Sequence record: PV584117.1
DNA length: 50,572 nt
Reading direction: 5' to 3' (one strand)
Source of the DNA: Escherichia phage XJA18-XJ-2024
The notes under the pieces are model-generated. The model worked only from the letters and a program-made list of their open reading frames with translations. It made no database searches and was not told the origin of the DNA. Numbering within the stretch: the stretch's first letter is position 1; each line of letters starts with the position of its first letter. Of this stretch, positions 31,617 through 40,576 are shown one piece after another. The position numbers were made by a program, and so were the translations under genes.

Positions 31617-32255
31617 TTACATGATGAAAAACAGCGAAATAGCAGCGACCAGGAGAACAAGCGAGGCGGCAAGATTGAATAAATCCACCTTCTCTTTAAA
31701 CTTCAGCGATGGCTTGCGGTCAGCTTCTGACGGCTTGACGTTATGGATCTTGTTCGCTGCAACCTTGCCATTGACGCAGAAAGTACGCTTGCGCTTCTTG
31801 CCGAACGTTGCGAACTTAGTGCCGCCGCTATTCCATCGCAGACCTTCGCCATTGTGCGTTACGGTAGCAATGCGGTGACGTCCCGTGTCGTCAGTAAGAG
31901 CTACAGTGTGTTTTGCGTTCTCGGTCGGCGCTTCGTAAATATTGCCAACAGTAAATTTTTTGGTGTTATCGCTGATACATTCAAATTTCATAAATTTTAC
32001 CTCTTTATTATGCAGTTGGTTGATTGCTTCGATTACGTCGTTAAATTTAACACCATCCACGATTCGATGGAAGATATATTTTGAGCTACCGCCATAAGGC
32101 AGGAAAATTTCCTGATATTCGTGACGCCGTACAACGTTCACGTTGCATCCGTTCTCATCAGTAATGATAAAACTATCATCATTCACTCTAGCGCCTTCGT
32201 ACACTCTACCCAACTTAAAGCCAGATCCGCTACTCGATACACACTCAAATTTCAT
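31617..32255 (-). CDS. tail-anchored membrane protein with tandem duplicated domain
   Basis: 212 aa; two repeats beginning MKFEC(V/I)S; C-terminal hydrophobic helix LAASLVLLVAAISLFFIM. Confidence 0.5.
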   Translation of the reverse strand: MKFECVSSSGSGFKLGRVYEGARVNDDSFIITDENGCNVNVVRRHEYQEIFLPYGGSSKYIFHRIVDGVKFNDVIEAINQLHNKEVKFMKFECISDNTKKFTVGNIYEAPTENAKHTVALTDDTGRHRIATVTHNGEGLRWNSGGTKFATFGKKRKRTFCVNGKVAANKIHNVKPSEADRKPSLKFKEKVDLFNLAASLVLLVAAISLFFIM

Positions 32256-32488
32256 GGTCTAATCTTCCTGTAAGGCTTGATTGATAACATCACGTATTGC
32301 GTGAAGTCACATTCTTGGTCGTCATACCCGCGATTGATGTATGGCGTCACGTCTGTAACATCGGACACCCTGGCGTGAACTTCCCACCCGGTAAACTCGT
32401 CACGATCGAACTCGCATAGCTCAAGGATATCGCCAGGCTGGAAGTTGCGGTCATTGATGCGGAACTCTGCCGTTTTTGTTCCGTTCAT
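32252..32488 (-). CDS. hypothetical protein
   Basis: 78 aa; stop overlaps start of downstream gene. Confidence 0.4.
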   Translation of the reverse strand: MNGTKTAEFRINDRNFQPGDILELCEFDRDEFTGWEVHARVSDVTDVTPYINRGYDDQECDFTQYVMLSIKPYRKIRP

Positions 32489-32522
32489 TACCCCAATGAA
32501 ATGTACCGGGGCGATTTTTAAT

Positions 32523-32729
32523 TTATGAGTTTTGATCGTCTTCCTTCACCTCGAATGTTACGTTCCAAAATTTATTGCCGCAAGAATGATAGGTTACGTC
32601 ATGCGGCGTTAATTCGTGCAATGCATGACCGATGATTTCCATGCGATCGTTCGGTGTCAGACCTCGAAGTGATTCACGAAGGCGTGAAGCCTTGTCGTAA
32701 ATCTGCCACTGCGTTAGTCGTGTAGCCAT
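32523..32729 (-). CDS. hypothetical protein
   Basis: 68 aa; start at internal ATG preceded by ACCAATCAGAGGA. Confidence 0.45.
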   Translation of the reverse strand: MATRLTQWQIYDKASRLRESLRGLTPNDRMEIIGHALHELTPHDVTYHSCGNKFWNVTFEVKEDDQNS

Positions 32730-32794
32730 AGCTAATTCCTCTGATTGGTTGCCGTGCTTCAATAAGGCCACTATAACAAATGGCCTTGCGGAAG

Positions 32795-32814
32795 GTTTAG
32801 CAATTCGTGCTATC
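32795..32814 (-). promoter_or_regulatory. promoter cassette box
   Basis: GATAGCACGAATTGCTAAAC (minus strand); 22 bp to TATAGT; hairpin AAGGCCA/TGGCCTT. Confidence 0.55.
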
Positions 32815-32958
32815 GTTTAACGCACATTGTTTTTACTTCGTATCCGAACGGCTTATTCTCTGAAATCACCTCCCGAGCCTTGTTGCATGATTGTTGGTTT
32901 TCCATGTATACGTGATCTGGCCCGGTACTCATTAAGATAATCAAAACCCATGCAGCCA

Positions 32959-33465
32959 TTATTTCACCTCATAGCGGACGAGTGTTCCGCGCTTAATGCT
33001 GATTTCACCTGATACCGTCTTGTTCTTGAAGCCGCCGTGATGCAATAGAAGCGTGATGATATCGTCGTGCACCTCAATAGTTTTTGGTGTCGCGGTAATC
33101 TCAATCCAAGAATCGCTGCTAATCTGGACACCTTTTAGCGTTGCGCTAAGTGGCATGTTCTCGATCTGAGAGCACTGTAACGATGGTTTGATTTCTGGCG
33201 TTGCAGCCTTGAATGTCGAGCCTCCAATCTTCCAGCTATCATACAAGCTGTAAGCATTATGACCGTCACTCATAATGTAGTGGTAGTCCTTATTTGGTGA
33301 GTTTTCTTTATTCACTTCGTTATGTCTGGAAATAAACCACTCCAGCTTAAGCTGCGACACCTCATCAGTGGCCCAAGTGCCCTTATCTTTATCTGTGAAC
33401 GTAATTTCACCACATCCCATGCTGATAAATTTGATCGGGAATTTAACGTCTTCTAATTTCAACAT
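32959..33465 (-). CDS. hypothetical protein
   Basis: 168 aa; RBS AAGAGGA. Confidence 0.45.
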   Translation of the reverse strand: MLKLEDVKFPIKFISMGCGEITFTDKDKGTWATDEVSQLKLEWFISRHNEVNKENSPNKDYHYIMSDGHNAYSLYDSWKIGGSTFKAATPEIKPSLQCSQIENMPLSATLKGVQISSDSWIEITATPKTIEVHDDIITLLLHHGGFKNKTVSGEISIKRGTLVRYEVK

Positions 33466-33520
33466 AATGATTTCCTCTTAGTGGTTGGTGTGGGGATTAT
33501 ACCAGTCAAGACAAATCCCC

Positions 33521-33540
33521 TTTTAACAATTCGTGCTTAG
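33521..33540 (-). promoter_or_regulatory. promoter cassette box
   Basis: CTAAGCACGAATTGTTAAAA (minus strand); 22 bp to consensus TATAAT; hairpin GGGGATT/AATCCCC. Confidence 0.55.
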
Positions 33541-39104: not shown

Positions 39105-39425
39105 ATGAACCACACTTACAAAATCACAACGAAGTCACCGAAGATTAACGGAAGCACGGTTGCGGCACTGAATAACGCGGCGGCAATTCACGAAAAAAAT
39201 ATCATGGAGCGAGTGAAGGCGGCGGTAGGTAGATTCTACGGGATCAATGCCGACATTGCCGACAGCAAGCGACTGTTCAAATACGTTCCAGGTCATCCAT
39301 ATGGCAGGATGATTGATATCAAGCATGAAAAAGAATTGGTTCGAATCGGATCGCTAACCATTGATGAGTTCGATCATAGCATCAACCTAGTGACGGCGTA
39401 TCAAACTTGGGACGGTAAAAAATGA
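39105..39425 (+). CDS. hypothetical protein
   Basis: 106 aa; RBS AAGGGGGAG. Confidence 0.45.
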   Translation: MNHTYKITTKSPKINGSTVAALNNAAAIHEKNIMERVKAAVGRFYGINADIADSKRLFKYVPGHPYGRMIDIKHEKELVRIGSLTIDEFDHSINLVTAYQTWDGKK

Positions 39426-39565
39426 TTTATATTCACACTTTCTATACTGGCAAATTTAACAGCGTAAAAAATGTTCGAGTTTACGATAGCCACCAAAAAG
39501 CAATGATGCAGAAAGTAGTTCTAGGCGGCACAATCAAAGAGTGCAAAGTAATTTCTGAGTACTGA
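39422..39565 (+). CDS. small hypothetical protein (tentative)
   Basis: 47 codons starting ATG overlapping upstream stop (ATGA); below track length cut-off. Confidence 0.3.
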   Translation: MIYIHTFYTGKFNSVKNVRVYDSHQKAMMQKVVLGGTIKECKVISEY

Positions 39566-39583
39566 TAGCACGAATAGCTAAAG
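39564..39583 (+). promoter_or_regulatory. promoter cassette box
   Basis: GATAGCACGAATAGCTAAAG; hairpin GGGAGTA/TACTCCC with TATAT loop. Confidence 0.5.
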
Positions 39584-39641
39584 ACAATTAGCAGGGAGTA
39601 AGGTATATTACTCCCACACCAAACAAACAAAGGAATTAAAA

Positions 39642-39866
39642 ATGAGCATTAAAGTTGAGAATATCATCAAGCACCTGAACGCGAAAGGCCGTGTAGTTAT
39701 CAAAATGGATAAGTCTTCCGGCTTTATTTCAATGACGGTAACTAAGGCTCGTAACGGTAATAACGTTATCGGCAGCACTCCAGGCTCGCGCTTAGTAAAT
39801 GCAACAGATGCCGATGTTCGTGCTACGCTTGAAGCAAACTCAATTTATATTAATTCGTGGAGTTAA
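39642..39866 (+). CDS. hypothetical protein
   Basis: 74 aa; RBS AAAGGAA. Confidence 0.45.
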   Translation: MSIKVENIIKHLNAKGRVVIKMDKSSGFISMTVTKARNGNNVIGSTPGSRLVNATDADVRATLEANSIYINSWS

Positions 39867-39869
39867 TTA

Positions 39870-40079
39870 ATGGAGCAGGATAATTTTTGGACCCGTTATT
39901 TTGCAGCGCTTGATGCTGGACTTAGTGCCGAATGGTGCATCAAGGTTGCATATAAAGAAATAACACTTGATGAGGCTCTTGGCGATATGGATATGAATGC
40001 TGAAAGCGAATACGATCCTAACTTTGAATTACCTAGTGATGATATTAATGAAGACGACGACGATTATATTCCCTGGTAA
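39870..40079 (+). CDS. small acidic protein with SSB-tail-like C-terminus
   Basis: 69 aa; C-terminus NEDDDDYIPW resembles the SSB acidic tip DDDIPF. Confidence 0.5.
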   Translation: MEQDNFWTRYFAALDAGLSAEWCIKVAYKEITLDEALGDMDMNAESEYDPNFELPSDDINEDDDDYIPW

Positions 40080-40098
40080 ATAGCACGATTTGTTAATA
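40079..40098 (+). promoter_or_regulatory. promoter cassette box
   Basis: AATAGCACGATTTGTTAATA; 22 bp to TAAAGT; hairpin AAGGTCA/TGACCTT. Confidence 0.55.
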
Positions 40099-40159
40099 TT
40101 GCCGTAAGGTCATTTGATAAAGTGACCTTATTCAAGATAACCAATCAGGAGTTAACGAA

Positions 40160-40576
40160 ATGAAATCCATCAAACTGAAATGTACTCACGCAGATAAAAT
40201 CACAGGATTTGAAGTAAACAACCTATACAAAGGTCGTGAGCGCTATGATGGCACTCGTGAAATCAAGTTAAAATGCGGCAAGTATTTAAAACTTGAAAAG
40301 CATGATGAATTACAGATTCACGGATCTGATGAAATCTTCTTCGCTAAGTTCACTGAGTTGAAAACAAAGACGCTCAAGTGCACCGGGCTTGACCATCGCA
40401 ACCCAATGAAAAAATCATTCAAAGTTGGCAAGCGTTACCAGGTTGAAAGCGGTCGCGCTCTCGGTGGCGTAGCTGGTTACATCTTTGATGAAGATGGTTG
40501 TCGATGGACCTTGTTTCGCGAAGAGGTTGGTTTTAGTATCGCAGACGGCACAACCTTTGAGGCCAAATACTTATAA
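40160..40576 (+). CDS. hypothetical protein with internal repeats (K-x-K-C family)
   Basis: 138 aa; repeated KLKC/TLKC segments; RBS ACCAATCAGGAG. Confidence 0.5.
   Translation: MKSIKLKCTHADKITGFEVNNLYKGRERYDGTREIKLKCGKYLKLEKHDELQIHGSDEIFFAKFTELKTKTLKCTGLDHRNPMKKSFKVGKRYQVESGRALGGVAGYIFDEDGCRWTLFREEVGFSIADGTTFEAKYL

Follow-up and report, generated by a model that had tools for sequence, protein, structure and literature searches.

The presumed early region of the genome of Escherichia phage XJA18-XJ-2024 (sequence record PV584117.1; the whole stretch of 50,572 nucleotides analysed here is referred to as the window) encodes three small proteins, here named A, B and C, all of which are labelled 'hypothetical protein' in public records. 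An initial annotation, made by eye from the sequence, had proposed that the three form a paralogous family sharing a short K-x-(K/E)-C module, with a tandem repeat and a C-terminal membrane anchor in A. The open reading frames (ORFs) and the peptides quoted from them lie at the coordinates given there. The family holds for A and for C, each of which has two units, and does not hold for B; the motif is real, though not as a short module, being in our models the first strand of a whole six-stranded barrel of ~65 residues. Taking identity, fold and evolution jointly, we consider it very probable that A and C are divergent, multi-unit relatives of DUF7244 (SH3 clan) and DUF6501. The 10 kb around the three genes are 88–92% identical to complete T1-like genomes such as vB_EcoS_SA12KD, LeonhardEuler (Bas13), Sfin-1 and pSf-2, and by this identity the window can be assigned to a Tunavirus-like (T1-like) phage of the Drexlerviridae.

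Sequence and profile comparisons of the units

Five instances of the pattern K[FLIVM][EK]C are found in the 82 called proteins, against an expectation of 0.64 from per-protein shuffles (at most 4 in 500 shuffles), and four of the five occurrences fall in A and C. When the units are aligned jointly, the residues that do not vary are the Cys of strand 1, the Phe and the Tyr of strand 2 and the Gly of a D-[DE]-x-G turn. The wider signature consists of a first strand h-K-h-[KE]-C, a loop of 9–15 residues, a second strand F-x-h-[GN]-x-x-Y and a D-[DE]-x-G hairpin. The segment TLKCTGLDHRNP, which had been quoted as one of the shared peptides, is the genuine start of unit C2.

The tandem repeat within A is borne out. 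Units A1 and A2 align with a Smith-Waterman z of 11.6, a score reached by none of 500 shuffles, and their profiles align over 63 columns at 29% identity (hhalign P 2.8e-8); with A1 as the query, tblastn cross-matches A2 in several related phages at E ~1e-4. Between A and C the similarity had been described as weak, which is true of single sequences (A1-C2 z 5.1, A1-C1 z 3.4) but not of profiles, with which it becomes significant. Several further single-sequence scores are at the level of noise, among them C1-C2 (z 0.5) and A1-D (z 1.5), where D is a single-domain DUF7244 protein encoded elsewhere in the window.

For the profiles, family alignments were made of 43 units and proteins of the 27.5–46.7 kb region, with members taken from 15 related viral contigs and the protein database, and all 903 pairs were compared by hhalign. 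The best pairs were A1-A2 (P 2.8e-8), A1-C1 (1.3e-4), A2-C1 (1.6e-4), C1-D (1.8e-4), A2-C2 (1.9e-4) and A1-C2 (6.9e-4), and unrelated pairs start at P 7.6e-4. All of these top six are among the 10 pairs possible within A1, A2, C1, C2 and D, an outcome with a hypergeometric chance of ~3e-13. This profile-profile comparison, which the initial annotation had suggested as a check, thus links the units of A and C, and it yields no link for B. Hidden Markov models (HMMs) re-aligned without the held-out family were run against all 315 six-frame ORFs of the window: A was recovered at E 1.5e-4, C at E 3.1e-6, and D, by a model built from A and C units only, at E 7.4e-4, in each case as the first non-training match.

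Pfam DUF7244 (PF23896; curated gathering cut-off 27 bits) is matched in register by whole A (E 0.0048, 17.4 bits) and by whole C (E 0.0085, 16.6 bits), in both cases below threshold. The best stretch of the match in A is residues 90–111, which lie in A2, and the match in C covers residues 4–42. Searched alone, A2 has no Pfam match, and it matches phrog_9122 at E 2.2e-4. In-register profile similarity over the whole domain, at the level of DUF7244/DUF6501 and the SH3 clan, was found for A and for C. A sequence search of the PDB with the family profiles of A and C gave nothing up to E 10, and NCBIfam likewise yielded no match.

It could be argued that small basic proteins of separate origin share the K-x-K-C segments by chance, and that there is no family. 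The similarity was called weak when it was first noticed, several single-sequence scores, such as the two given above, are noise, and both the whole of B and one of the peptides quoted from C (KLKCGKYLKL, residues 35–44) are indeed chance matches. However, the A1-A2 score, the recovery of each held-out family in first place, the confinement of the top six of 903 profile pairs to five units, and a top structural match that is identical for the models of A and C, together refute this explanation for A and C; it stands for B and for residues 35–44 of C. As an account of the set as a whole it is scarcely credible, and we proceed with A and C as relatives of each other and of DUF7244.

Predicted fold of the units

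AlphaFold2 models of A and C were made with the family alignments. In this structure prediction, the other check that the initial annotation had proposed, all four units show the same order of elements: strand 1 with K-x-K-C, a loop of 9–15 residues, and then five strands. The strands are placed at residues 2–8, 18–23, 28–32, 38–43, 50–53 and 60–65 in A1, at 88–95, 106–110, 117–121, 127–134, 139–143 and 146–150 in A2, at 2–11, 22–27, 33–36, 42–44, 50–54 and 59–67 in C1, and at 71–76, 92–101, 104–109 and 115–120, with two short strands in addition, in C2. The model of C is confident (predicted local distance difference test, pLDDT, 92.5; predicted template modelling score, pTM, 0.83). The top structural match is identical for the models of A and C, and Foldseek matches in BFVD are DUF7244 proteins together with many phage proteins of 56–75 amino acids. 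As modelled, the units have the small SH3-like β-barrel fold of the DUF7244/DUF6501 superfamily, and also the features of Gp54 of phage Bas11 (PDB 9axb; Pfam PF25180), whose barrel has six strands and a prominent loop that joins the first to the second; Gp54 is the direct trigger of the defence protein CapRelSJ46 and is bound by it directly (Zhang et al., 2024; PMC11578894). The units of A and C are accordingly described here as predicted six-stranded SH3-like β-barrels of ~65 residues.

Several points tell against the kinship of A and C with these families. The family alignments are shallow (effective number of sequences, Neff, 1.5–5), and the pairwise profile P values between A and C (~1e-4) are marginal after correction for 903 comparisons. 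Both proteins miss the gathering score of DUF7244 (17.4 and 16.6 vs 27 bits), and when single units are searched only C1 still matches (E 0.072, 13.6 bits), the rest being filtered out, so that the Pfam support comes from the whole-protein scores. The model of A is of moderate confidence, with a pLDDT of 62.5 overall, 78–90 over the first 40 residues of A1 and ~47–75 in A2. For Gp54, hhalign comparison of its family with the units gave P 0.017–0.77, which is not significant even with Gp54 homologues added; a sequence link between Gp54 and the units was rejected on this ground. The link is structural only and may be a convergence of folds.

Convergence might be taken further, such that A, C, D and Gp54 all share a fold without common descent and the motif pattern expresses what such a barrel needs structurally, and not paralogy. 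Phage proteins often contain small SH3-like barrels, Gp54 is without significant sequence similarity to the units (P 0.02–0.8), only core or turn residues are invariant among the units, and the superfamily profile also picks unrelated repetitive β-proteins (SprB, Big_1) via hairpin-like matches. We judge this explanation to be distinctly unlikely, and retain A and C as divergent relatives of DUF7244.

Table 1. Proteins, units and related reading frames in the window
Feature	Position	Strand	Length or residues	Remarks
Protein A	31617-32255	minus	212 aa	Corresponds to phrog_10580
Unit A1, predicted six-stranded barrel	32052..32255	-	aa 1-68	Strand 1 MKFEC; AlphaFold2 pLDDT 78-90 (first 40 residues)
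Helical linker A1/A2	31998..32051	-	aa 69-86	AlphaFold2 helix 71-82
Unit A2, predicted six-stranded barrel	31791..31997	-	aa 87-155	Strand 1 MKFEC at aa 89-93
Basic linker and C-terminal transmembrane tail anchor	31620..31790	-	aa 156-189 (linker), 190-212 (anchor)	AlphaFold2 helix 186-211
Protein B, non-member	33537-34022	minus	161 aa	Corresponds to phrog_9595; tandem of a different ~75-aa unit (aa 1-84, 85-161), both halves matching phrog_13367
Protein C	40160-40576	plus	138 aa	Corresponds to phrog_2684
Unit C1, predicted fast-evolving barrel	40160..40363	+	aa 1-68	Strand 1 IKLKC; AlphaFold2 pLDDT ~94
Unit C2, predicted conserved barrel	40364..40573	+	aa 69-138	Strand 1 TLKC
Protein D, canonical single-domain DUF7244	44274..44450	-	58 aa	MKRVKCIRNDSKTLPFRVNQIYSV...; adjoins lysis genes
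Candidate member	34094..34285	-	63 aa	CFTVDKPYNA...ISLLDDNGDPWVF; without the Cys strand; hhalign P 6e-5
Weak candidate member	28314..28517	-	67 aa	QVRCITSRNSDAFSAGCLYDV...VYGDDGN; motif in register
Orthologue of Bas11 Gp54	35622..35816	-		Structural relative only; Pfam Gp54 E 8.5e-35, 118.8 bits; 9axb E 1.2e-13

Architecture and relatives of protein A

Protein A is predicted to run as barrel, helix and barrel, after which a polybasic linker leads to a tail anchor at the C-terminus. The membrane anchor that had been read from the sequence is present and is kept even in distant relatives: a Lys/Arg-rich stretch is followed by 21 hydrophobic residues, and the hydrophobic tail recurs in P0037, P0198 and P0225. 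The stop codon (31617–31619) is closely followed by a terminator-like hairpin at 31609–31584. A has no N-terminal signal sequence; given this, and the basic residues that precede the transmembrane helix (the positive-inside rule), we infer that the barrels of A face the cytoplasm, tethered at the inner membrane.

Homologues of A are found in 67 phage records, all of them from Tunavirus-like phages of Escherichia or Shigella, and within the family the helical linker has a mean pairwise identity of 90%. The version of A in phage T1 consists of A2 and the anchor only (124 amino acids), unit A1 not being found there, and A2 is the unit that T1 gp10 retains, as do the distant relatives P0198 and P0225. 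Because T1 and the distant relatives have this form, the ancestral A would have been one barrel with a tail anchor, and A1 a later internal duplication. This duplication would be old, since the starts of A1 and A2 are only 55% identical in DNA over their first 60 nucleotides. A recent duplication or gene conversion, considered as a source of the near-identical MKFEC starts, was rejected on the same figure.

The gene next to A encodes a DUF3850/ASCH-like protein (32252–32488, minus strand), and its stop overlaps the start of A by 4 nucleotides (ATGA). The pair of a DUF3850 gene followed by a gene for a barrel with an anchor reappears in a distant metagenomic phage contig (L034), and P0198 keeps the gene order DUF3850, barrel plus anchor, PNKP. 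The pairing hints at co-expression or a functional link between DUF3850 and A.

Architecture and genomic position of protein C

Protein C is proposed to consist of two tightly packed barrels, of which the C-terminal one is conserved across the Drexlerviridae and the N-terminal one is fast-evolving, and its gene has a fixed place just upstream of a helicase gene (40590–42221). In the family alignment the variable N-terminal part (residues 1–68) starts with IKLKCT in most members and the conserved C-terminal part (residues 69–138) with TLKCT, and the mean pairwise identity is 41% in C1 and 78% in C2. Homologues of C occur in 823 phage records across the Drexlerviridae (Klebsiella, Escherichia, Salmonella and others); 613 of the 823 align over 80% or more of the query, and in others listed the alignment is confined to the C-terminal half. 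In some phages C1 is replaced by a shortened form starting MKVIRNSDN..., which resembles the CIRNDSK motif of DUF7244. Like A, C has no N-terminal signal sequence.

The peptide KLKCGKYLKL was considered as the start of a third unit in C and rejected: it lacks conservation among the C homologues, the DNA that encodes it is not a repeat, and in the model it falls mid-unit, within strands 3–4 of C1. Being neither conserved nor at the start of a unit, it is a chance recurrence of the motif.

The position of the gene raises the possibility that C is a replication accessory factor, for instance one that loads or partners the helicase, or a barrel that binds nucleic acids, and is not directed at the host. 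The order methyltransferase, C, helicase is found in three genera (the window, Webervirus KOX1 and Hanrivervirus aalborv), the gene is spread over the 823 phage records, and the C2 half is strongly conserved; moreover, binding to nucleic acids or partner proteins is frequent among small barrels, Sm, KOW and Tudor being examples. On the other side, C has no sequence or fold match to a known loader or single-stranded-DNA-binding protein, its hypervariable N-terminal half is unusual for a core replication factor, and aalborv has another ORF between C and the helicase gene. A role in replication is therefore considered unlikely, and we favour, tentatively, a binding module for host or phage partners.

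Exclusion of protein B

As a member of the K-x-K-C family, B was rejected on sequence and profile grounds. Against the units of A and C it reached a Smith-Waterman z of at most 0.6 and an hhalign P of 0.077 over 6 columns, and the segment MKIKLLCTGGYKGF, which had been quoted as its copy of the module, has no similarity to any unit. None of the unit-profile searches of the window ORFs returned B, and none of its PHROG neighbours (13367, 15322 and 7345) is shared with A or C. The two halves of B match phrog_13367 from profile position 1–2 (E 1.1e-4 and 4.6e-6) and align with each other (Smith-Waterman z 3.5), with the shared pattern K-h-[KR]-L-L-x-x-G-G-Y ... P-h-I-V-D. Since both halves match this profile and align with one another, B is a tandem duplication of a different, phrog_13367-like unit.

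Protein D and further candidates in the same genome

The family reaches beyond the region covered by the initial annotation, to protein D and to two candidate ORFs. D matches Pfam DUF7244 over its full length at E 2.5e-28 (98.4 bits) and is a bona fide member, so that this genome has the canonical single-domain form alongside A and C. The 63-residue ORF has hhalign P 6e-5 against the superfamily profile (the next family is at 0.041), is usually the best non-training match in profile searches (E 0.01–0.04), and has phrog_14592 and phrog_38782 in common with A and C. The 67-residue ORF is a weak candidate: its profile E values range from 9.3e-4 to 0.34, its Smith-Waterman z to A2 is 4.2 and its hhalign P, in register, is 0.02, so that its membership is marginal and not significant alone. 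The barrel domain is thus present at least five times, perhaps eight, in this genome.

The genes around D lie on the minus strand at 43051–45665, in the order exonuclease (44514–45665), DUF7244, a holin-like gene (43940–44218), endolysin (43452–43940) and spanin (43051–43455). This order agrees with the module order reported for Drexlerviridae (PMC13164509).

The setting of D invites the explanation that the units assist lysis by binding the cell wall as SH3b-like modules, with the barrels of A in the periplasm, facing the peptidoglycan. D sits between the exonuclease and the holin, endolysin and spanin genes, a lysis-accessory role has been proposed for the standalone DUF7244 protein, whose gene is reported to be always near the lysis module (PMC13164509), and A is membrane-anchored. 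However, A and C belong to other transcription units than the lysis genes, at distances of 12 kb and 3.5 kb from them; both are without an N-terminal signal sequence, and the anchor of A, placed after a polybasic stretch, predicts cytoplasmic barrels; C keeps its place beside the helicase gene and not the lysis genes; and even for D a part in lysis is no more than hypothetical. Neither periplasmic export nor association with endolysin or lysis genes was found for A or C, and only D adjoins the holin gene. We hold a lysis function of A and C to be very improbable, and return below to the binding modules that we favour.

Other features of the presumed early region

An AT-rich, divergent intergenic region lies at 36424–37041. 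The top three sigma-70-like promoter matches of the scanned 10 kb are found here on the minus strand (36743–36714, with 11/12 positions; 36811–36783; 36510–36482), and these strong matches at 36.5–36.8 kb sit upstream of the minus-strand gene cluster, in agreement with an early expression of its genes. The region also contains a pair of 24-nucleotide direct repeats 30 nucleotides apart (36901–36924 and 36931–36954) and an A/T palindrome (36678–36697), and is probably an early promoter or regulatory region.

Two neighbouring plus-strand genes for hypothetical proteins, at 38499–38894 and 39105–39425, have products that share the pattern V-[RK]-A-A-...-[YF]-Y-G-[VI]. Their Smith-Waterman z is 4.4, with 1 of 1000 shuffles reaching the score, and their hhalign P is 0.0074 over 51 columns; the two products may be paralogous, with support that falls short of significance after multiple testing. 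In the same cluster of small proteins, a minus-strand gene at 34572–34799 encodes a 75-residue, full-length member of Pfam DUF7274 (E 7.8e-38).

Discussion

The observation with which this analysis began is confirmed in part, and the family drawn from it is supported in part. It was already known that DUF7244 belongs to the SH3 clan, that its standalone protein occurs in Drexlerviridae, and what the structure of Gp54 is; new here are the multi-unit relatives A and C, which score below the cut-off, and the presence of at least five copies of one domain in one genome. Two 'hypothetical proteins' are now given a fold and a family, and one of them, C, is present in >800 sequenced Drexlerviridae genomes. 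No new kind of system is revealed. What emerges is that T1-like phages carry one barrel domain in several different architectures.

In the proposed scheme, one small barrel domain was duplicated within and between genes of T1-like phages, and would now be found free (D), doubled and tethered to the membrane (A), and as a pair in which one barrel is conserved and the other fast-evolving, encoded beside a helicase gene (C). Only core or turn residues are invariant, which fits a structural core better than an active site. SH3-like barrels serve as binding modules. Because of this, and because the sibling fold of Gp54 is bound directly by CapRelSJ46, it is possible, and we suggest it tentatively, that the units act as non-enzymatic binding modules, as protein-protein adaptors for host or phage partners.

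Comparison with DUF7244, DUF6501 and Gp54

DUF7244 has been assigned to the SH3 clan and described as the 'standalone SH3' protein of the lysis region of Drexlerviridae, with a proposed lysis-accessory role and a gene reported to lie close to the lysis module in every case (Eremina et al., 2026; PMC13164509). The units of A and C resemble it in the V-K-C-I strand, the F-x-V-N-x-x-Y strand and the Gly turn, in a length of ~57 residues, and in belonging to the same phage family. They differ from it in that A and C score below the cut-off, have two units each and are encoded far from the lysis genes, and A also has a membrane anchor. The paralogues A and C are not described in that study.

When the unit profile was run against 1.84 billion representative proteins, 53 matches were obtained at E <=1e-3. 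One group of these consists of single-domain DUF7244-like proteins of 54–73 amino acids, a second of proteins with one barrel and an anchor, like A2 (P0198, P0225), and a third of tandem arrays of 2–5 units (P0209, P0202, P0204, P0185). The giant matches P0183, P0189 and P0191, which are SprB/Big_1 repeat proteins with many weak hairpin matches, were discarded as false positives. Of the arrays, P0209, P0202 and P0204 match both DUF7244 and DUF6501 (PF20111), and P0185 matches DUF7244 only. The DUF6501 array proteins carry the motif K-C-I-[DN]-N ... L-T-[VI]-G-K-x-Y-[ED]-V ... D-D-x-G, as in the units, and they duplicate head-to-tail like A and C, with 2–5 units per protein, on other phage-like contigs. 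In the Pfam search the units of A and C gave no reportable DUF6501 score, and a literature search on DUF6501 found no papers.

The third relative in kind is Gp54, whose topology was called very rare in nature and which was described without a close structural relative; it is non-essential, and most of its homologues, even close ones, do not activate CapRelSJ46 (PMC11578894). The window has its own Gp54 orthologue (Table 1), which differs from Bas11 Gp54 at many positions, and a longer, TTG-started ORF at this place extends to 35882. Gp54 differs from the units in being single-domain and in lacking the strand-1 Cys and the F..G..Y and DDxG motifs, and the Gp54 Pfam profile gave no match to A or C at E up to 1. 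A bolder proposal, which we regard as doubtful, is that Gp54 is one branch of a large, fast-diversifying phage superfamily that includes DUF7244, DUF6501, A and C and is deployed several times per T1-like genome as host-interaction modules, with C1 or the barrels of A as targets, decoys or inhibitors of CapRel-type immune sensors. At the level of predicted structure, Gp54, the structurally isolated trigger of CapRel, gains its first close structural relatives in the units of A and C, and the likeness suggests concrete candidates for triggers or inhibitors of bacterial defence systems.

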